From contig CM059432.1 in assembly GCA_030390025.1 (NCBI GenBank), positions 9,548,001 through 9,612,000 on the forward strand: a stretch of 64,000 nucleotides of DNA, written 5' to 3'. Under the pieces are notes generated by a model. It saw nothing but the letters and a program-made list of their open reading frames with translations, was not told where the DNA came from and searched no databases. Within the stretch, counting starts at the first letter, position 1. Every line of letters begins with the position of its first letter. The position numbers and the translations under genes were made by a program. The DNA comes from Squalus acanthias (taxonomy: Eukaryota). Shown here one piece after another: positions 1,331 through 52,603 of this stretch.

Positions 1331-2397
1331 TTACTTTACTAGGTGAACACAACTCCAGAGCTGAATTATTGATTGTCGAGGGACCATGTTGCCGATTGGG
1401 AAATAATTGTAAGTTTCAGGCTTCAAGTTGGATTGTTTCATATCTATAACAAAGGTTGAAGCGTGACAGCTGGCGTGCGATTGACAAAAGGTACATTGGA
1501 TGAAATGCGACTCTGCCATGGTACTGTTCATAGTTAATGAAAGGATGCGCTGTTACAGCAGGGTTCTTATGCAAGATATTTTGTTTCAGCCTGGAGCCTA
1601 CAATCGCAGGATCATAGAATCTTAGAGCACAGAAGGAGGCCATTCGGCCATCACGCCTGCACCGGCTCTTGTTTTTAAATTAGTGGGGCTGTGTTTCAGA
1701 GACAGTACGGGGAGGGAATGGGGTGACGCTTTAACATTTTCTTTTATAGAGTGGAGACAACAGCTGGGGTTGACATTGCAGAAACGGGTTGAGCCGGGAG
1801 AGGAGGGGGGGCGGGTGGTGCGATCTTTCAAATAGAGGCGGGATAGATTGTATCAGGAGCTGAGGGCAAAGAGCTGGTTGCAGAGCCGCATTTAGAAAAA
1901 CACACTTTCTAGCTGGAGCGTTGAGACCGGGAGCAAGATAAATTTAAATTTTTTTTTTATACAGCTTGTGGCATGGAGAGAGTGCAGAGCTGGTTAAAAT
2001 GGGATATAGCACAGAAGGAGGCCATTCGGCCCATCGTGTCTGCGCCAGCTCTCTGAAAGAGCTGCCCAACTAGTCCCATTGGAATAAAAGGGACAGTGGC
2101 AGCCTGGATACGAAATTGGCTAAGTGACAGGAAACAGAGAGTAGTGGTGAACGGTTGTTTTTCGGACTGGAGGAAGGTATACAGTGGTGTTCCCCAGGGT
2201 TCGGTACTAGGACCACTGCTTTTCTTGATATATATTAATGACTTGGACTTGGGTGTGCAGGGCACAATTTCACCATTTGCAGATGACACAAAACTTGGAA
2301 GTATAGTGAACAGTGAGGAGGATAGTGATAGACTTCAAGAGGACATAAATGAGAAGTCGCACAACACCAGGTTATAGTCCAACAGATTTATTTAAAA

Positions 2398-2439
2398 TTA
2401 CAAGCTTTCGGAGCTATCGATCGCCCCTTCTTCAGGTAA
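2398..2439 (-). ncRNA. Minimal hammerhead motif, inverted arm
   Basis: Exact reverse complement of 4923-4964. Confidence 0.8.
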
Positions 2440-2703
2440 AGTTACTATGAGTGAATCTACAAAAGTTCACAGAATTTAAACACAGAAAAAGCAGAGATAC
2501 AATCTTTCCTTACATCAAAGACACACCAAGAGCACAGCCAAGACAATGAGATGTGTCCCAGGGGGTCCAACGTGTCAAATCCTGCTGTCTGCGTATCCTC
2601 TCCATATCCCTTCCTCTCTCTCCCTCCTTTTTGGGTTTGTATTTTGGGTTTGTTTTTTTGTGTTTGTTTTTTAAAAACTGGAAAGACAGACAACGATGTC
2701 AAG

Positions 2704-3660
2704 TCACGTTCTGTAGCGTGACATGAACCCGATATCCCTATTGAGGCCGTCCTCATGAGTGCAGAACTTGGCTATCAGTTTCTGCTCGATGATTTTGCGT
2801 TGTCGTGTATCCCGAAGGCCGCCTTGGAGAACGCTAACCCGCGGATCCGAGGCTGAATGCCCTTGACTGCTGAAGTGTTCCCCGACTGGGAGGTAACACT
2901 CCTGCCTGGCGATTGTTGCGCGGTGTCCGTTCATACGTTGTCGCAGTGTCTGCATGGTCTCGCCGATGTACCATGCTCTGGGGCATCCTTTCCTGCAACG
3001 TATCAGGTAGACAACGTTGGCCGAGTCACATGAGTATGTACCATGTACCTGGTGGGTAGTGTCCTCACGTGTGATGACGGTATCTGTGTCCATGATCTGG
3101 CATGTCTTGCAGAGGTTGCCGTGGCAGGGTTGTGTGGTGTCATGGTCGCTGTTCTCCTGATAGCTGGGTAATTTGCTGCGAACGATGGTACTTTTGAGGT
3201 TAGGCGGCTGCTTGAAGGTGAGTAGTGGAGGTGTGGGGATGGCCTTAGTGAGGTGTTCGTCGTCATCGATGACATGTTGAAGGCTGCGAAGAACATGGCG
3301 TAGTTTCTCCGCTCCGGGGAAGTACTGCACGACGTAGGGTACTCTGTTGGTTGTGTCCCGTGTTTGCCTTCTGAGGAGGTCTATGCGGTTTTTAGCTGTG
3401 GCCCGTCGGAACTGTCGATCGACGAGTCGAGCGTCATATCCAGTTCTTACGAGGGCGTCTTTCAGTGTCCGTAGGTGTCCATCGCGTTCCTCCTCGTCTG
3501 AGCAGATCCTGTGTATTCGCAGGGCTTGTCCATAGGGGATGGCTTCTTTAACGTGGTTAGGGTGGAAGCTGGAGAAGTGGAGCATCGTGAGGTTGTCCGC
3601 GGGCTTGCGGTAGAGTGAAGTGCTGAGGCGTCTGTCTTTGATGGAGATTCGTGTGTCCAA
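2704..3660 (-). CDS. Inverted copy of the same Penelope-like RT-thumb/GIY-YIG ORF
   Basis: 318 aa, colinear with 3715-4671, 18 amino-acid differences by my count; WYIGET motif. Confidence 0.9.
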   Translation of the reverse strand: MDTRISIKDRRLSTSLYRKPADNLTMLHFSSFHPNHVKEAIPYGQALRIHRICSDEEERDGHLRTLKDALVRTGYDARLVDRQFRRATAKNRIDLLRRQTRDTTNRVPYVVQYFPGAEKLRHVLRSLQHVIDDDEHLTKAIPTPPLLTFKQPPNLKSTIVRSKLPSYQENSDHDTTQPCHGNLCKTCQIMDTDTVITREDTTHQVHGTYSCDSANVVYLIRCRKGCPRAWYIGETMQTLRQRMNGHRATIARQECYLPVGEHFSSQGHSASDPRVSVLQGGLRDTRQRKIIEQKLIAKFCTHEDGLNRDIGFMSRYRT

Positions 3661-3714
3661 GAATGAAACCGATTCTGAGGAGTAGTCTCAGAATCCTCAG
3701 AATCGGTTTCATTC

Positions 3715-4671
3715 TTGGACACACGAATCTCCATCAAAGACGGACGCCTCAGCACTTCACTCTACCGCAAGCCCACGGACAACCTCACGATGCTCCACTT
3801 CTCCAGCTTCCACCCTAACCACGTTAAAGAAGCCATCCCCTATGGACAAGCCCTACGAATACACAGGATCTGCTCAGACGAGGAGGAACGCGATGGACAC
3901 CTACGGACACTGAAAGACGCCCTCGTAAGAACAGGATATGACGCTCGACTCGTCGATCGACAGTTCCGACGGGCCACAGCGAAAAACCGCATAGACCTCC
4001 TCAGAAGGCGAACACGGGACACAACCAACAGAGTACCCTACGTCGTCCAGTACTTCCCCGGAGCGAAGAAACTACGCCATGTTCTTCGCAGCCTTCAACA
4101 TGTCATCGATGACGACGAACACCTTGCTAAGGCCATCCCCACGCCTCCACTACTCGCCTTCAAGCAGCCGCCTAACCTCAAAAGTACCATCGTTCGCAGC
4201 AAATTACCCAGCTGTCAGGAGAACAGCGACCACGACACCACACAACCCTGCCACGGCAACCTCTGCAAGACATGCCAGATCATGAACACAGATGCCATCA
4301 TCACACATGAGGACACTACCCACCAGGTACATGGTACATACTCATGTGACTCGGCCAACGTTGTCTACCTGATACGTTGCAGGAAAGGATGCCCCAGAGC
4401 ATGGTACGTAGGCGAGACCATGCAGACACTGAGACAACGTATGAACGGACACCGCGCAACAATCACCAGGCAGGATGGTTGCCTCCCAGTCGGGGAACAC
4501 TTCAGCAGTCAAGGGCATTCAGCCTCGGATCTGCGGGTTAGCGTTCTCCAAGGCGGCCTTCGAGACACACAACAACGCAAAATCATCGAGCAGAAACTGA
4601 TAGCCAAGTTCTGCACTCATGAGGACGGCCTCAATAGGGATATCGGGTTCATGTCACGCTATAGAACGTGA
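3715..4671 (+). CDS. Penelope-like ORF C-terminal part: end of RT/thumb, Cys-rich linker, GIY-YIG endonuclease (5'-truncated; the listed start is an internal TTG)
   Basis: SFLD..LYRKP..SFHP (late RT), CHGNLCKTC linker, VVYLIRCRKGC..WYVGET, R..GH, EH, E..LI, GLN. The Cys-rich linker suggests the Neptune-like clade. Confidence 0.9.
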   Translation: MDTRISIKDGRLSTSLYRKPTDNLTMLHFSSFHPNHVKEAIPYGQALRIHRICSDEEERDGHLRTLKDALVRTGYDARLVDRQFRRATAKNRIDLLRRRTRDTTNRVPYVVQYFPGAKKLRHVLRSLQHVIDDDEHLAKAIPTPPLLAFKQPPNLKSTIVRSKLPSCQENSDHDTTQPCHGNLCKTCQIMNTDAIITHEDTTHQVHGTYSCDSANVVYLIRCRKGCPRAWYVGETMQTLRQRMNGHRATITRQDGCLPVGEHFSSQGHSASDLRVSVLQGGLRDTQQRKIIEQKLIAKFCTHEDGLNRDIGFMSRYRT

Positions 4672-4922
4672 CTTGACATTGTTGTCTGTCTTTCCAGTTT
4701 TTAAAAAACAAACACAAAAAAACAAACACAAAAAGGACGGAGAGAGAGGAAGGGACATGGAGAGGATATGTAGACAGCAGGATTTGACACGTTGGACCCC
4801 CTGGGACACATCTCATTGTCTTGGCTGTGCTCTTGGTGTGTCTTTGATGTAAGGAAAGATTGTATCTCTGCTTTTTCTGTGTTTAAATTCTGTGAACTTT
4901 TGTAGATTCACTCATAGTAACT

Positions 4923-4964
4923 TTACCTGAAGAAGGGGCGATCGATAGCTCCGAAAGCTTGTAA
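4923..4964 (+). ncRNA. Minimal type I hammerhead ribozyme motif in the Penelope 3' repeat
   Basis: TTAC-CTGAAGA-A-GGGGC(gatcgata)GCTCC-GAAA-G-CTT-GTAA: stem I TTAC/GTAA, conserved core, palindromic AGCT stem III, predicted cleavage after CUU (4960); AATAAA follows. Confidence 0.8.
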
Positions 4965-6019
4965 TTTTAAATAAATCTGTTGGACTATAACCTGGTGTTG
5001 TGCGACTTCTCATTTTTGTCCACCCCAGTCCAACGCCGGCATCTCCGCATCAAGAGGACATAGACAGGCTGGTGGAATGAGCGGGCACGTGGCAGATGAA
5101 ATTTAACGCAGAAAAGTGCGAAGTGATACATTTTGGTAGGAAGAACAAGGAGAGGCAATATAAACTAAAGGCTACAATCCTAAAGGGGGTGCATGGACAG
5201 AGAGACCTGGGGGTATGTGTGCACAAATCATTGAAGGTGGCAGGGCAGGTTGAAAAAGCGGTTAAAAAAGCATACGGGATCCTGGGCTTCATAAATAGAG
5301 GCATAGAGAACAAAAGCAAGGAAGTTATGATGAACCTTTATAAAACACTGGTTCAGCCTCAACTGGAGTATTGTGTCCAATTCTGGGCACCGTACTTTAG
5401 GACGGACGTGAAGGCCTTAGAGAGAGGGTGCAGAAAAGATTTACAAGCATGGTTCCAGGGTTGAGGGACTTCAGTTATGAGGATAGACTGGAGAATCTGG
5501 GGTTGTTCTCCTTAGAACAGAGAAGGTTGAGAGGAGATTTGATGGAGGTGTTCAAAATCATGGGGGGTCGAGACAGAGTAGATAGAGAGAAACTGTTCCC
5601 ATTCGCAGAAGGGTCGAGAACCAGAGGACACAGATTTAAGGTGATTGGCAGAAGAACCAAAGGCGACATGAGGAAAAACTTTTTTACGCAGCGAGTGGTT
5701 AGGATCTGGAATGCACTGCCTGAAAGGGTGGTGGAGGCGGACTCAATCGTGGCTTTCAAAAGGGAATTGGATAATTACCTGAAGGAAAAAATTTGCAGGG
5801 CTACGGGGAAAGGGCAGGGGGGAGTGGGACTAGCTGAAATGCTCTTGCAGAGAGCCGGCACGGGCTCGACAGGCCGAATGGCCTCCTTCTGTGCTGTAAC
5901 CATTCTATGATTCTATGATTCCCCTTGCTCTTTCCCCATAGCTCTGCAAAATTTTCCTTTTCAAGTATTTATTTTTTCTTTTTTTTTAACAGGTGCAACC
6001 TGGTTCTGGGTGAGCCATA

Positions 6020-6610: not shown

Positions 6611-7231
6611 ATTTTTTTCATTTTTTTTTATTAAGCAGGGAACAGGGCCCTATGAAAAACCAAAAATAAGTTCTAAATTTTTTTATCCAGTAGGGATTGG
6701 GCATTGGGGTCACAGGCTTTAATGTTTCATTGTTTTTTGCTGCTAGCCAATAGGAATAAGGATTAAAGTGAAGATTGGGGCTACAGACCTCAAGTTTAAT
6801 ATTTTTCAGGGCAGGCAATGGGGATCGGAGCCAAAGAGGCTAAAGTTCAATGTTTTCTTTTAAGTCAGCAGCAGAGACTAGGCCCGAAGTTGGATTTATT
6901 TATTTTTCAGGCCTGCGAGCGGTAAGCGGAAAATAAAACCGAGGAAAAAGGTCGGGAATGTCAACAGAGGCAGTGGGCGTGGTAAAGGGGGCAGGAGGCG
7001 GAGAGAGCAGAATTATGGGCAGAATTACCTGCAGTTAAACTCTCAAAATTTCAAGATTGAACAGATACGACGGAGGCAGAATTGGGAGAAAGAGTTCAGA
7101 AGCTCACTCCACAGTGTCGCCTAGTGGCAAAACCTCGCAACTATATTGTGACAGGCAACAGTTGACATCAGCACAGGTACTGCAGCTTCCACTAGCTTAT
7201 ATACATTTTATACTCTACTCTTTAATTTACA

Positions 7232-7414
7232 AATGTGAGAAGTCGCACAACACCAGGTTATAGTCCAACAGGTTTATTTGAAATCACAAGCTTTCATAAC
7301 GCTGCTCCTTCGTCAGCTTGTGATTTCAAATAAAACTGTTGGACTATAACCTGGTGTTGTGCGACTTCTCACATTTGTCCACCCCAGTCCAACACTGGCA
7401 TCTCCACATCATGG
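7232..7414. mobile_element. Miniature palindromic Penelope-like insertion
   Basis: Inverted copies of the Penelope 3' end, plus a tail on the right; TSD ctttaatttaca (7220-7231, 7415-7426); degenerate hammerhead in the left arm. Confidence 0.9.
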
Positions 7415-8096
7415 CTTTAATTTACACAGAGCTACATAGAGTCTACAGCATGGAAACAGGTCGTTCGGCCCAACTGGTCCATAGCGGCGTTTATGCTCCT
7501 CACGAGCCTCCTCCCGCCCCTCTTCATCTCACCCTATCAGCATATCCCTCTATTCCTCCCTCCCTCATGTACTTATCTAGCTTCCCTTTAAAGGCATCTG
7601 TGCCATTCACCTCAACTACCCCATGTGACAGTGAGTTCCACATTCTCACCACTCTCTGGTGAGATTATCTGCTCATTATCACATTGCTGTTTGTGGGAAC
7701 TTGCTGTGCGCAAATTGGCTGCCGTGTTTCCTACATTACAACAGTGATTCCACTTCAAAAAAACATACTTCACTGGCTGCAAAGCACTTTGAGACGTCCG
7801 GTGGTCGTGAAAGGCGCTATATAAACGCAAGTCTTTCTTTCTTTCTTTCTCTGGGTAAAGACATTCCTCTTGAATTCCCTATTGGATTTATTAGCACACG
7901 TTAGAAATAAATAAGGAGTCTGTAAATCGACGGGGGAAACATCTGAAACCGTTACTGACACCGTAACACACAGCGTAACAAAACAAGGCAGAATAAAAGT
8001 GAGTACTGTTAGGTCTGACAAAATAATATAATTGAAGTTGTAGGATTGCCGAATTCTGCGGTCTGATGCGAAAGAGATATTGTTGGTGATTGTCAC

Positions 8097-15110: not shown

Positions 15111-15310
15111 NNNNNNNNNNNNNNNNNNNNNNNNNNNNNNNNNNNNNNNNNNNNNNNNNNNNNNNNNNNNNNNNNNNNNNNNNNNNNNNNNNNNNNNNNN
15201 NNNNNNNNNNNNNNNNNNNNNNNNNNNNNNNNNNNNNNNNNNNNNNNNNNNNNNNNNNNNNNNNNNNNNNNNNNNNNNNNNNNNNNNNNNNNNNNNNNNN
15301 NNNNNNNNNN
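15111..15310. other. Assembly gap (200 N) inside a CR1 fragment
   Basis: Run of N; ccacacctggagcact on both flanks. Confidence 1.
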
Positions 15311-21411: not shown

Positions 21412-21920
21412 TATTCGACTTCGAGACACACGACAACGCAAAATCATCGAGCAGAAACTGATAGCCACGTTCCGCACCCATGAGGACGGCCTCAATAGGG
21501 ATCTCGGGTTCATGTCATGCTACAGAACGTGACTCGACATCGTTGTCTGTCTTTCCAGTTTTTAAAAATAAAAAAAAAACAAAGCAAAAAAAAAAACAAC
21601 CAAAAAAAAAGGTTAAAAGCTGAACTGCAGACGGCAGGATTTGACACGTTGGACCCCCTGTGACCCATCTCATTGTCTTGGCTGTGCTCTGGTGTGTCTT
21701 TGATGTAATGCCTCCCTGAAAGATTGTATCTCTGCAGACAAATTGCTTTCTGTGTTTATATACTGTGTAATAGATTCCCTCATTGTACCTTTACCTGACG
21801 AAGGGGCAACAGCTCCGAAAGCTTGTAATTTTAAATAAATCTGTTGGACTATAACCTGGTGTTGTGCGACTTCTCATTTTTGTCCACCCCAGTCCAACAC
21901 CGGCATCTCCGCATCATGAC
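21412..21920 (+). mobile_element. Penelope-like 3' fragment, non-palindromic
   Basis: Encodes the end of the GIY-YIG ORF (RKIIEQKLIA..HEDGLNRD), then 3' UTR, hammerhead and tail; TSD cttataag (21404-21411, 21921-21928). Confidence 0.9.
21791..21828 (+). ncRNA. Minimal hammerhead motif
   Basis: TTAC-CTGACGA-A-GGGGC(aaca)GCTCC-GAAA-G-CTT-GTAA. Confidence 0.8.
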
Positions 21921-47900: not shown

Positions 47901-48573
47901 ACCTCTGCAAAGACCACATAAGTATTTTTTTTTAACTTGTCAGAGAGCAAAGTGATCAATTGAACTCCTGAGGCATGCAAGGCGAAGTCACAAAACTAAT
48001 CAGGATTTACAGGTTGCTTGCTCCAAGAACTTCAACCTTTTCTTTTTCATTCTCCTCAGGGGGGCTCTGGCTGGGTTGTAAAAACCTTCTGCTCCTGCGA
48101 GGTACATTGGTTTACAAGCTTTAATGTGTGTGCCTTTGTTTCAGATAAGCAGGCATGACCATGTACTTTTCCTTGATGTTATTGCCAAGCAGCCCAGTAG
48201 CAAAAATTAAATGTGATAGCAAAATAAAACTCGAAGGGAAATCGCTCTGCTTTAACCTACAGAAATTTTACCATCATTATCCACCCACCCACCCCACCCT
48301 CCAAATTTTTTCAATCCTTGACCTCGCCGTCCTTGCAAACCGCCGCCCCATCCCCAACCTCCCTTTCCTCTCCAAAGTCCTTGAACGTGTTGTCGCTTCC
48401 CAAAGCCGTGCCCAGCTTTCTCGGAACTCCAGGTTTGAATCCCTCCAATCAGGTTTCCGCCCCTGCCACAGTACCGAAACAGCTCTCATCAAAGTAACAA
48501 ATCCTATGTGACTTTGATAAGAGCCGTTTCGGTACTGTGGCAGGGGCGGGAACCTGATTGGAGGGATTCAAAC

Positions 48574-49505
48574 AGAAAGGCAGAGTATTATTTAAATGGT
48601 GATAGATTGGGAAATGCTGATGTACAGAGGGACCTGGGTATCCTTGTACACCAGTCACTGAAAGCAAACATGCAGGTGCAGCAAGCAGTTAGGTTTTGTG
48701 TACAGGAGCAAGGATGTCTTACTACAGTTATACAGGGCCTTGGTGAGACCACACCTGGAGTATTGTGTCCAGTTTTGGTCTCCTTATCTAAGAAAGGATA
48801 TACTTGCCACAGAGGGAGTGCAGCGAAGGTTCACCAGACTAATTCCTGGGATGGCAGGATTGTCATATGAGGAGAGATTGGGTCAACTAGGCCTGTATTC
48901 ACTAGAGAGAAGTCGCACAACACCAGGTTATAGTCCAACAGTTTTATTTGAAATCACAAGCTTTCGGAGCTGCTGCTCCTTCGTCAGGACCTGACGAAGG
49001 AGCAGCGCTCCGAAAGCTTGTGATTTCAAATAAAACTGTTGGACTATAATCTGGTGTTGTGCGACTTCTCACTTTTGTCCACCCCAGTCCAACACCGGCA
49101 TCTCCGCATCATGTATTCACTAGAGTTTAGAAGAATGAGAAGGGATCTCATTGAAACATATAAAATTCTGACAGGGCTGGATGCAGGGAGGATGTTTCCC
49201 CTGGCTGGGGGGTCTAGAACGAGGGGTCACAGTCTCAGGACTGAGATGAGGAGAAATTTCTTCACTCAGAGGGTGGTGAACCTGCGGAATTCTCTACAAC
49301 AGAAGGCTGTGGAGGCCAAGTCACTGAATATATTTAAGAAGGAGATAGATAGATTTCTAGACACAAAAGGCATCAAGGGGTATGGGGAGAGAGCGGGAAT
49401 ACAGTATTGAGATAGAGGATCAGCCATGATCATATTGAATGGCGGAGCAGGCTCGAAGGGCCGAATGGCCTACTCCTGCTCCTATTTTTCTATGTTTTCT
49501 ATGTT
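48574..49505 (+). mobile_element. CR1 3' fragment hosting the mini-Penelope
   Basis: RPHLEYCVQFWSP..GLYSLE | insertion | YSLEFRRM. Confidence 0.85.
48908..49111. mobile_element. Miniature palindromic Penelope-like insertion with back-to-back hammerhead cores
   Basis: Centre tcgtcagg-a-cctgacga at 48989; CTGACGA-A-GGAGC(agc)GCTCC-GAAAGCTT; TSD tgtattcactagag (48894-48907, 49112-49125); inside a CR1. Confidence 0.92.
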
Positions 49506-49699
49506 TCTACTTAAATGTAAGTTTTCCTTTTTATATATATACAAGTTGTTGCCCTTCAATACCTCACCCAAGTGCCTATTCTTCATTGATGAGAAGGGAC
49601 AGTGTCCGTCAACAGGCTAATCGCCCAGAGTGTGGGTAGGATATGGGTGACTTCACAGATAGAAGTCTCATCCTTTCCTCAAATCATGGGGAACCCAGT

Positions 49700-52603
49700 T
49701 GACACCCGACCCGATTTGCACCCGGCCCGATTAACAACCGGCCCGATTAACACCCTGCCCGATTTACACCCAGCCAGATTTGCACCCGGCCCGATTAACA
49801 ACCGGCCCGATTAACACCCTGCCCGATTTACACCCAGCCAGATTTACACCCGGCCCGATTAACACCCTGCCCGATTTACACCCGGCCCGATTTGCACCCG
49901 GCCCGATTAACAACCGGCCCGATTAACACCTGGCCCGATTTACACTCCGCCCGATTTACACCCGGCCTGATTAACACCCGGCCCGATTTACACCCGGCCC
50001 GATTTACACTCCGCCCGATTTACACCCGGCCTGATTAACAACCGGCCCGATTAACACCCAGCCCAATTTACACCTGCCCGATTTACACCCGGCCCGATTT
50101 ACACCCGCTCGATTAACACCTGGCCGATTTACACCCTGCCCGATTTACACCCTGCCCGATTTACACCCGCCCGATGAACACCCAGCCCGATTTACACCCG
50201 GCCCGATTTACACCCGGCCCGATTTACACCCGCCCGATTTACACCCGGCCTGATTAACACCCGGCCCGATTTACACCCGGCCCGATTTACACTCCGCCCG
50301 ATTTACACCCGGCCCGATTAACAACCGGCCCGATTAACACCCAGCCCGATTTACACCTGCCCGATTTACACCCGGCGCGATTTACACCCGCTCGATTAAC
50401 ACCTGGCCGATTTACACCCTGCCCGATTTACACCCGGCCCGATGAACACCCAGCCCGATTTACACCCGGCCCGATTTACACCCGGCCCGATTTACACCCG
50501 GCCTGATTTACACCCGCCCGATTTACACCCGGCCTGATTAACACCCGGCCCGATTTACACCCGGCCCGATTTACACTCCGCCCGATTTACACCCGGCCCG
50601 ATTAACAACCGGCCCGATTAACACCCAGCCCGATTTACACCTGCCCGATTTACACCCAGCCCGATTTACACCCGCTCGATTAACACCTGGCCGATTTACA
50701 CCCTGCCCGATTTACACCCGCCCGATGAACACCCAGCCCGAATTACACCCGGCCAGATTTACAGCCGGCCCAATTTACACCCGTCCCGATTTACACCCGC
50801 CCGATTTACACCCAGCCCGATGTACACCCGGACCGATTTACACCCGGCCCGATTTGCACCGGGCCCGATTTGCACCTGGCCCGATTTACACCCGGCCCGA
50901 TTTACACCCCGATAGATTTACACCCAGCCCAATTTACACCCGGCCCGATTTACACCCCGATAGATTTACACCCAGCCCGATTTACACCCGGCCCGATTTA
51001 CACCCCGATAGATTTACACCCGGCCCAATTTGCACCCGGCCCGATTTACACCCCGATAGATTTACACCCGCCTGATTTACACCCGGCCTGACTTACACTC
51101 GGCCCGATTTACACCCCGATAGATTTACACCCGGCCCGATTTACACCCCGATAGATTTACACCCAGCCCAATTTACACCCGGCCCGATTTACACCTGGGC
51201 CGATTAACAACCGGCCCGATTTACACCCAGACCGATTAACAACCGGCCCGATTTACACCCGGCCCAATTAACAACCGGCCCGATTTACACCCGGCCCGAT
51301 TTACACTCGGCCCGATTTACACCCGGCCAGATTTACACCCGGCCCGATTTACACCCACCCGATTTACACCCGGCCCGATTTACACCCGGCCTGATTTACA
51401 CCCGCCCAATTTACACCCGCCCCGATTTACACCCGGCCCGATTTACACCCGGCCCGATTTACACCCGGCCCGATTTACACCCGGACCGATTTACTCCCGG
51501 CCCGATTAACAACTGGCCCGATTTACTCCCGGCCCGATTTACACCCGCCCAATTTACATCCGGCCCGATTTACACCCGGCCCGATTAACAACTGGCCCGA
51601 TTTACACCCGGCCTGATTTACACCCGCCCGATTTACATCCGGCCCGATTTACACCCGGCCCGATTTACACCCGCCCGATTTAGACCCAGCCCGATTTACA
51701 CCCACCCGATTTACACCCGGCCCGATTTACACCCAGCCCGATTAACACCCGGCCCGATTTACACCGAGCCCGATTTACACCCACCCGATTTACACCCGTC
51801 CAATTTACACCCGGCCCGATTAACAACCGGCCCGATTTACACCCACCCGATTTAGACCCGGCCCGAATAACAACCGGCCTGATTTACACCCGGCCCGATT
51901 TACACCCGGCCCGATTTACACCCGCCCCGATTTACACCCGCCCCGATTTACACCCAGCCCGATATACACCTGGCCCGATTTACACCCGCCCCGATTTACA
52001 CCCGGCCCAATTTACACCAGCCCGATTAACACCCGGCTCGATTTACACCCGGCCCGATTTACACCCGGCCCGATTTACACCCGCCCCGATTTACACCCGG
52101 CCCGATTTACACCCGGCCCGATTTAGACCCGGCCCGATTTAGACCCGGCCCGATTTACACCCACCCCGATTTACACCCGCACCGATTTACACCCAGCCCG
52201 ATATACACCTGGCCCGATTTACACCTGCCCCGATTTACACCCGGCCCGATTTACACCAGGCCCGATTTAGACCCGGCCCGATTTAGACCCGGCCCGATTT
52301 ACACCCACCCCGATTTACACCCGCACCGATTTACACCCAGCCCGATATACACCTGGCCCGATTTACACCTGCCCCGATTTACACCCGGCCCAATTTACAC
52401 CAGCCCAATTAACACCCGGCTCGATTTACACCCGGCCCGATTTACACCCGGCCCGATTTGCACCCGCCCCGATTTACACCCGGCCCGATTTACACCCGGC
52501 CCGATTTACACCCCACCAGATTTACACCCGGCCCGATTTACACCCGGCCCGATTTACACCCAGCCCGATTTACATGCGGCCCGATTTACACCCAGCCCGA
52601 TTT
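49700..52603. repeat. Minisatellite, 16-bp unit GATTTACACCCGGCCC, about 180 units
   Basis: Directly visible; 15-bp variants and higher-order blocks. Confidence 0.98.

Follow-up and report, generated by a model that had tools for sequence, protein, structure and literature searches.

Published Penelope-like elements (PLEs) typically carry an adjacent inverted, 5'-truncated copy and a tail of 30-40 bp at one end (PMC8557442, Fig. 2 legend), and the inverted-repeat form is the one most frequently observed for Penelope in D. virilis (PMC2377424). Inverted arrangements with target site duplications (TSDs) of 9-10 bp have been attributed to self-priming on an antisense template (PMC3846280), hammerhead pairs are described on opposite strands 100-700 bp apart in Schistosoma (PMC4209133), and inverted pseudo-long terminal repeats (pLTRs) with extensions are given as curation hints (PMC8969392). 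With a PLE related to the one described here, both target strands were cut and extended in vitro, and two reverse transcriptase (RT) start sites bound the tail (PMC11167929); PMC8557442 and PMC11167929 both describe as an open question how Penelope inverted repeats and tails originate. Here we analyse a PLE family of the shark Squalus acanthias, starting from a window of 64,000 nucleotides (assembly GCA_030390025.1, contig CM059432.1, positions 9,548,001 to 9,612,000, forward strand). Its insertions are real, common and of fixed geometry, and they represent, in a new family of Neptune type, a form already known for Penelope. There is no novelty in the layout as such: an original prediction, made from the letters of the window, had treated it as special to this family and inverted ends as occasional in PLEs, which the papers above contradict, and its two sites had been mapped as RT starts in 2024 (PMC11167929). 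That prediction also overlooked the hammerhead, the symmetric target motif and the possibility of a tail on either arm. The value added by the shark family lies in a symmetric target and in evidence for twin priming. We put at roughly 65% the probability that its palindromes arise by twin priming by a protein dimer on a two-fold symmetric target, with a stagger of about 12 nt.

Three insertions with TSDs of 12-14 nt and a one-sided tail lie where they had been predicted. In copy 1, TSDs of 13 nt (TCAAGAGGACATA) at 2335-2347 and 5050-5062, read on the forward strand, enclose an insert of 2702 nt (2348-5049). Its tailless arm, on the reverse strand at 2348-3687, begins 2 nt past a 19-nt landmark sequence to which end positions below refer, and it contains a predicted hammerhead core (2435-2402), the 3' untranslated region (UTR) and the 3' 327 codons of the open reading frame (ORF), with thumb, linker and GIY-YIG nuclease. 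The tailed arm (3694-5012, forward strand) runs from an ORF remnant bearing the CX4CxxC linker and a GIY-YIG domain with CCHH, through the stop at 4671, the 3' UTR and the hammerhead, to the landmark ending at 5012. On the same strand a minimal type I hammerhead core is predicted at 4927-4960, with CUGANGA, an extra nucleotide, stem II, GAAA and the palindromic AAGCUU, and with a predicted cut after 4960. The tail follows at 5013-5049 (forward); in full-length copies the same stretch extends to +40, the A of the ORF start codon. Between the arm ends lie six extra nucleotides, TCAGAA (3688-3693, no strand assigned), a copy of neighbouring element sequence. The two arms, 1338 nt (tailless) and 1319 nt (tailed), differ by 36 mismatches (2.7%).

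The other copies in the window all lie on the forward strand. Copy 2 (7220-7426, with 12-nt TSDs at 7220-7231 and 7415-7426) is an insert of 183 nt whose tailless and tailed arms occupy 7232-7316 and 7315-7414. Its arm lengths are 81 and 57, so that the shortest arm in the window is 57 nt and not about 80 bp as first stated. Copy 3 (48894-49125, with 14-nt TSDs at 48894-48907 and 49112-49125) is an insert of 204 nt with its tailless arm at 48908-48988 and its tailed arm at 48989-49111; the arm lengths are 83 and 83, and the centre coincides with the 5' edge of the hammerhead. Copy 4 (about 21412-21920) is solo: it is tailed and 5'-truncated, has no inverted arm, and its exact flanking repeat is only 8 nt. 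Copy 1 splits a host RT remnant of long interspersed element (LINE) type, so labelled from its translation, at 2057-5464 on the forward strand (pieces 2057-2347 and 5063-5464). In-silico excision of copy 1 or copy 3 together with one TSD restores an unbroken host LINE stretch, spanned by 58 and 57 BLAST hits, respectively, in the window and the fetched loci; the empty site of copy 2 had no spanning hit in the same set. Short-read contigs from four runs, aligned to 2200-3760 (contigs only), included nothing that bridges the centre or the left junction. The loose contig ends at 2347 are uninterrupted copies of the host repeat, so these contigs weigh neither for nor against the locus.

Judged by domain layout, the insertions derive from a Neptune-type Penelope-like retrotransposon and are truncated at the 5' end. 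A protein search yielded 69 scored long copies, and the 20 with the longest frames were fetched. These read pLTR-ORF-pLTR, a partial tandem, and in an alignment of 15 full-length copies the upstream pLTR spans 46-736 nt before the landmark. The closest named proteins come from sharks, at 84-92% identity. The ORF of locus L170 encodes 892 amino acids, with an RT domain (RVT_1, E=1.4e-8) followed by a GIY-YIG nuclease with CCHH. The nuclease was recognised by eye (VVYLI-CxxxC-WYIG, H, H); Pfam PF01541 gave no match to the L170 protein or to the nuclease remnant and is listed for many homologues. The linker between the two domains reads CHGKLCKTC, that is CX4CxxC, and a CX2-5CxxC linker before a C-terminal GIY-YIG is the definition of Neptune/Nematis (PMC8557442). 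The predicted ribozyme lies about 50-85 nt upstream of the landmark, within the pLTR, and its fold presents the core boxes, the extra nucleotide, stems I and II and the palindromic AAGCUU. An Rfam search returned no hammerhead match and only sub-threshold microRNA matches; a minimal hammerhead with such a motif has been described for PLEs (PMC4209133). Two other identities were considered and rejected. A miniature inverted-repeat transposable element (MITE) or other DNA transposon with terminal inverted repeats does not fit ends that differ by the tail, palindrome centres of which 109 are distinct among 132, and a parent that encodes RT and no transposase. A non-LTR retrozyme, which is described as consisting of head-to-tail, ORF-less hammerhead monomers, does not fit these copies, which occur head to head or alone and represent truncated ends of the ORF-bearing element. 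Loci L170, L173 and L178 carry different hammerhead stem II variants in the 5' and 3' pLTR of one element, and because of this difference two distinct source RNAs probably contributed to their partial tandem.

Copies in the source genome (3.7 Gb) were counted by exact sequence patterns, a sampling that is biased towards younger copies. The landmark 19-mer has 73,844 exact matches genome-wide and the landmark plus tail 34,222, against none for reversed-pattern controls; a second subfamily contributes 8,800 tailed ends by its own exact pattern, which brings the total of tailed ends to more than 43,000. The first sample comprised the first 100 tailed ends on contig C1, less two duplicates (L048 of L045, L066 of L065). 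An adjacent tailless inverted arm was found at 72 of the remaining 98, while 25 were solo and one was complex. A hand count of all 100 listed landmark places in C1:1-5.27 Mb gave 46 palindromes, 10 tailed solos and 11 partnerless tailless copies. Held-out samples were taken from the second subfamily (30 of the 8,800 ends: 20 palindromes, 4 solos, 6 edge-cut) and from a third pattern (60 of 203 ends on C2-C6: 37 palindromes, 15 solos, 8 edge-cut). Removed before counting were L125 (an inverted piece within a solo), the 14 edge-cut loci among the 90 held out and, for target counts only, L077, whose TSD is microsatellite. Palindromic integration had been predicted to be common, and the tabulated fractions agree: palindromes make up about 70% of sampled insertions (72/98 among C1 tailed ends, 46/67 in the census including tailless solos). 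One apparent tailless/tailless pair, L144, proved to be two copies of different subfamilies with satellite between them. Elsewhere two or three mini-palindromes occur within about 2 kb (L118/L119 at C1:9083997-9086950, and L128/L129), which reflects either clustering or duplication on a local scale.

Sequence directly shows the family, its geometry, how often each form occurs, the TSDs, the symmetry of the target, the microhomologies and the arm lengths. Among the 72 palindromes of the first sample the TSDs measured 12 nt in 30 cases, 13 nt in 21 and 14 nt in 9; exact repeats of this length thus flank 60 of the 72, compared with a longest repeat of 8 in 300 swapped-flank controls. TSDs of 12-14 nt were also found for 17 of 20 held-out palindromes of the second subfamily and 20 of 37 of the third pattern. 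For the 48 palindromes with a 12-nt TSD, the tailless outer end ranges from -5 to +6 relative to the landmark, most often +2, and the tailed outer end, about 38 nt beyond it, from +36 to +47, most often +40. Microhomology exceeds the control at both ends (1.67 vs 0.76 nt at the tailless end, 1.62 vs 0.54 nt at the tailed end). The forecast of fixed, non-random outer ends, with both strands of a staggered cut used, is borne out by these figures. No palindrome among the 123 mapped has two tails. The further claim that the inverted arm always lacks the tail is true by definition in equal-armed copies, so the rule is restated here as one tail per pair, on either arm: the single tail stands and its assignment to one arm does not, since the 11 ORF-bearing copies that have an inverted arm carry it on that short arm in five cases and on the ORF arm in six.

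Arm lengths span 16 to 2220 nt, reaching into the ORF, although both arms are at most 105 nt in 88 of the 123 palindromes. The two lengths are correlated (Spearman 0.65 and 0.59); where they differ by more than 10 nt, the tailless arm is the longer in 46/123 and the tailed arm in 24/123. Arms of one insertion differ by 1.5%, compared with 5.6% between insertions. Solo tailed and solo tailless copies are about equally frequent in the C1 census (10 vs 11), and nine of the 11 partnerless tailless copies have a flanking repeat of 9-14 nt with at most one mismatch. Palindrome centres are diverse, with 97 singletons among the 109 distinct ones. The two commonest lie on microhomologies of 3-4 nt, each in both mirror forms; among 105 short centres, 41 overlap by at least 2 nt and 31 contain an insert. 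Inner ends pile up within 10 nt upstream of the hammerhead core (92 of 246), with only 15 in the following 10 nt. The pile-up lies on TCACTT, about 30 nt behind TATATAT, motifs which we take to be Inr-like (initiator) and TATA-like, respectively. In one subfamily the inner ends are shifted upstream (median -16 vs -6, p=0.0004), which fits a shifted TATA but equally a local palindrome and is therefore not taken as proof of the start site. The idea that arms stop where the hammerhead would cleave was dropped: the first sample had 7 of 44 ends within 1 nt of that point (p=0.004), but the held-out data, with 1/6 and 2/30, did not replicate this. An inner-end peak at -92 was partly a single-reference effect and was remapped with 31 references.

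Target sites have two-fold symmetry around an AT-rich core, with the consensus CnCTGnC-N12-GnCAGnG. Six motif positions chosen from the first sample score 3.77/6 on 13 held-out independent sites with 12-nt TSDs, compared with a background of 1.22. After exclusion of 22 sites homologous to another target, the left flank correlates with the reverse-complemented right flank (r=0.78, 40 independent 12-nt sites; shifted controls -0.27 to -0.04). On the same exclusion the weaker half-site scores 2.05/5, compared with 1.16 under a one-sided model, and none of 5000 simulations reaches 2.05. Two positions of a host LINE-type repeat are hot spots that received nine (L046, L054, L056, L057, L069, L115, L187, L205, L253) and six (L055, L085, L086, L095, L106, L117) independent insertions; both match the symmetric motif and hold insertions in both orientations.

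From these data we infer a dimer, a cut polarity, two priming events, a transcription start and end joining. The TSDs would place the top-strand cut to the right of the bottom-strand cut, leaving two 3' overhangs, and the symmetric site with its narrow spacing points to a dimer. The predicted dimer would cut both strands of the symmetric target about 12 nt apart, after which each 3' overhang could prime a separate cDNA, one from +40 at the start codon and the other from +2, some 38 nt upstream, each priming being assisted by 1-3 nt of pairing between overhang and RNA. Position +2 appears to be a start site in its own right, because tailless solos have flanking duplications of their own. Both cDNAs would run to the RNA 5' end, mostly by a short route that ends at a putative transcription start immediately 5' of the hammerhead: as the 5' pLTR of the RNA carries the same start site, run-off after about 90 nt would give mini-palindromes. 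End joining, via microhomology or short inserts, would then connect the two cDNA ends in head-to-head orientation, and priming at a single end would leave a solo tailed or solo tailless copy. A modelled N-terminal homodimer (residues 1-340) scored 0.50, with a best control of 0.00, contact agreement of at least 22% between runs and a predicted local distance difference test (pLDDT) value of at least 61. In microbial calibration the mark applied to this score was reached by 21 of 30 solved pairs and none of 23 single chains, and in eukaryotes by 17 of 29 pairs (7 of 16 in animals; 1 of 7 where no older solved relative exists) and none of 30 single chains. The model supports the homodimer, without amounting to proof.

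Several points weigh against twin priming as formulated here. The related enzyme uses its start sites equally on both strands in vitro (PMC11167929), and free choice of this kind would yield many tail/tail pairs where we have none in 123; the coupling to one tail requires the extra assumption that both active sites engage one RNA element. Long pairs are co-truncated, with 7 of 26 ending within 20 nt of each other where 2.4 are expected (p=0.005), which would fit a shared RNA or a fold-back. Loci L068, L110 and L112 carry two family haplotypes in their two arms, as two templates would produce, but so would later conversion, and asymmetric deletion at centres after insertion could account for some cases of a longer tailless arm. 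The putative transcription start was placed from motifs alone, and in the second subfamily a smaller share of inner ends piles up there (9 of 39). The half-site test used five positions, three of them read from the first sample and the other two from pooled data. No clean 12-nt core can be extracted from the apparent TSDs of 13-14 nt, and the stagger may accordingly be 12-13. Finally, L055/L135 and L061/L065 are pairs with a centre in common at different targets, and for this reason a pre-existing palindrome was probably the source of some copies. In the first of these pairs (C1:2938165-2938488 and C1:3041700-3042064) the common centre includes a 6-nt insert and the tail lies on opposite arms, which suggests that a palindromic copy served as template and that the ends were made anew.

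The competing account that survives best, though we think it unlikely, is fold-back or self-priming, the only explanation we found in print, where an antisense template is invoked (PMC3846280): one cDNA, or antisense RNA, would fold and be copied back to about 38 nt short of a protein-covered tail, then be joined to the second target end. It yields one tail per pair with no added assumption, in line with 0/123 tail/tail pairs, and it accommodates arms of the same subfamily (1.5% within vs 5.6% between insertions), correlated arm lengths (0.65, 0.59) and the 7/26 co-truncated long pairs. What it cannot yield is a tailless arm longer than the tailed one, as in 46/123, or the TSD-flanked tailless solos; the tail on the short inverted arm in 5/11 ORF-bearing copies, the two haplotypes in three insertions and a target symmetric on both sides also oppose it. 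A monomeric nuclease that nicks the strands sequentially, reading the same half-site twice, with priming on the second strand later, is improbable. The same specificity applied twice would suffice for a symmetric motif, about 30% of insertions are one-armed, and some GIY-YIG homing enzymes are reported to act so; a fixed pair would nevertheless better account for the tight spacing of 12-13 nt and for the N-terminal dimer of the model, and the related enzyme cuts both strands in vitro (PMC11167929). It is likewise quite improbable that the short palindromes represent a non-autonomous unit, whether MITE-like or in the form of a palindromic master RNA, that is copied whole with its geometry inherited. 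Short arms in 88/123 palindromes and the centres retained at different targets (L055/L135 with its 6-nt insert, and L061/L065) would suit such a unit; 109 distinct centres in 132 with 97 singletons, recurrent centres in mirror forms, arms of 16-2220 nt reaching into the ORF and ends that are not symmetric terminal repeats limit it to a minority at most. An assembly artefact, in which chimeric fold-back reads create false inverted duplications, is extremely improbable, as TSDs bracket the entire insertion, excision gives back an intact host repeat, the tail is one-sided, the pattern recurs on six chromosome-scale contigs and in the window, and copy 1 cannot be a read fold-back because its arms differ at 36 positions.

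Twin priming by a dimer may also be read more widely. We give slightly less than even odds to the proposal that PLEs generally use programmed twin priming: the dimer would make a restriction-enzyme-like double-strand cut of CnCTGnC-N12-GnCAGnG with 12-nt 3' overhangs, each of which would be loaded at its own fixed site on a single RNA element; every two-armed insertion would then have exactly one tail. Most events would copy 90 nt to the RNA 5' end, giving tens of thousands of hammerhead mini-palindromes, and the palindromic stem III of the hammerhead may pair two pLTRs as both templates.

In LINE-1 twin priming the second target strand primes a second cDNA, which gives an inversion within one TSD pair. 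The internal site used by the second primer varies there and no overlap exists between the two parts, whereas the shark element would have its second primer at a fixed site, with overlapping arms and a palindrome as the outcome. Canonical PLEs (D. virilis Penelope and Pen2a_Av of Adineta vaga; Craig et al. 2021, PMC8557442) resemble the shark family in the pLTR-ORF-pLTR tandem, the inverted 5'-truncated copy, the 30-40 nt tail, which likewise reaches the ORF start, the TSD and the pLTR hammerhead. They differ in TSD length (9-10 in the A. vaga examples, a peak at 12 in the shark family); tens of thousands of copies, mostly mini-palindromes of 120-250 nt, set the shark family apart, as does its symmetric target motif, of which we found no description for canonical PLEs. 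PAc, a Poseidon element of Anolis (Frangieh et al. 2024, PMC11167929), is alike in the two RT starts bounding the tail, the cutting and extension of both strands, the predicted N-terminal dimer and the hammerhead layout. Unlike the shark element, PAc belongs to the Poseidon clade and is without the linker zinc finger, its start sites lie 111-118 nt inside the ORF rather than at the start codon, and its cut preference is ATT rather than CnCTGnC half-sites. The main text on PAc does not derive inverted insertions from the two sites, and it reports no strand bias in site use. With Neptune/Nematis the element shares the CX2-5CxxC linker, the C-terminal GIY-YIG with CCHH and the DKG and GxKF motifs; Neptune is reported to favour microsatellite or AT-rich targets, whereas the shark element prefers the spaced symmetric motif. 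A literature search whose coverage excluded the core papers of 2004-2006 found no symmetric PLE target and no twin-priming account of PLE inversions. Nor did it find a report of microhomology at both outer ends, of an inner-end pile-up at a TATA/Inr-like site, of tailless arms that are often the longer, or of tailless solos with their own duplication.

The shark family supplies numbers that separate models of how Penelope inverted repeats form. It also offers a concrete substrate for the existing in vitro assay, namely a spaced symmetric site with a 12-nt stagger and starts at +2 and +40. Tens of thousands of TSD-flanked palindromes of 120-250 nt could, moreover, be mis-annotated as MITEs or microRNA hairpins. 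Several annotated shark proteins (P0007, P0010, P0011, P0015, P0020 and P0021; septin 5a, XRCC5, USP8 isoforms and others) include pieces of the ORF, and these are probably gene-model artefacts or exonised copies. In run X10, which is RNA only by guess, contig depth peaks over the pLTR end at 2359-2411 and drops towards the ORF interior; such contigs cannot give an expression level. The window further contains an assembly gap of 200 N (15111-15310), a tandem repeat array of about 2.9 kb (49693-52603) and, some 330 nt before copy 3, a palindrome of 141 nt (48433-48573) that is 91% self-complementary and unrelated to the PLE family.

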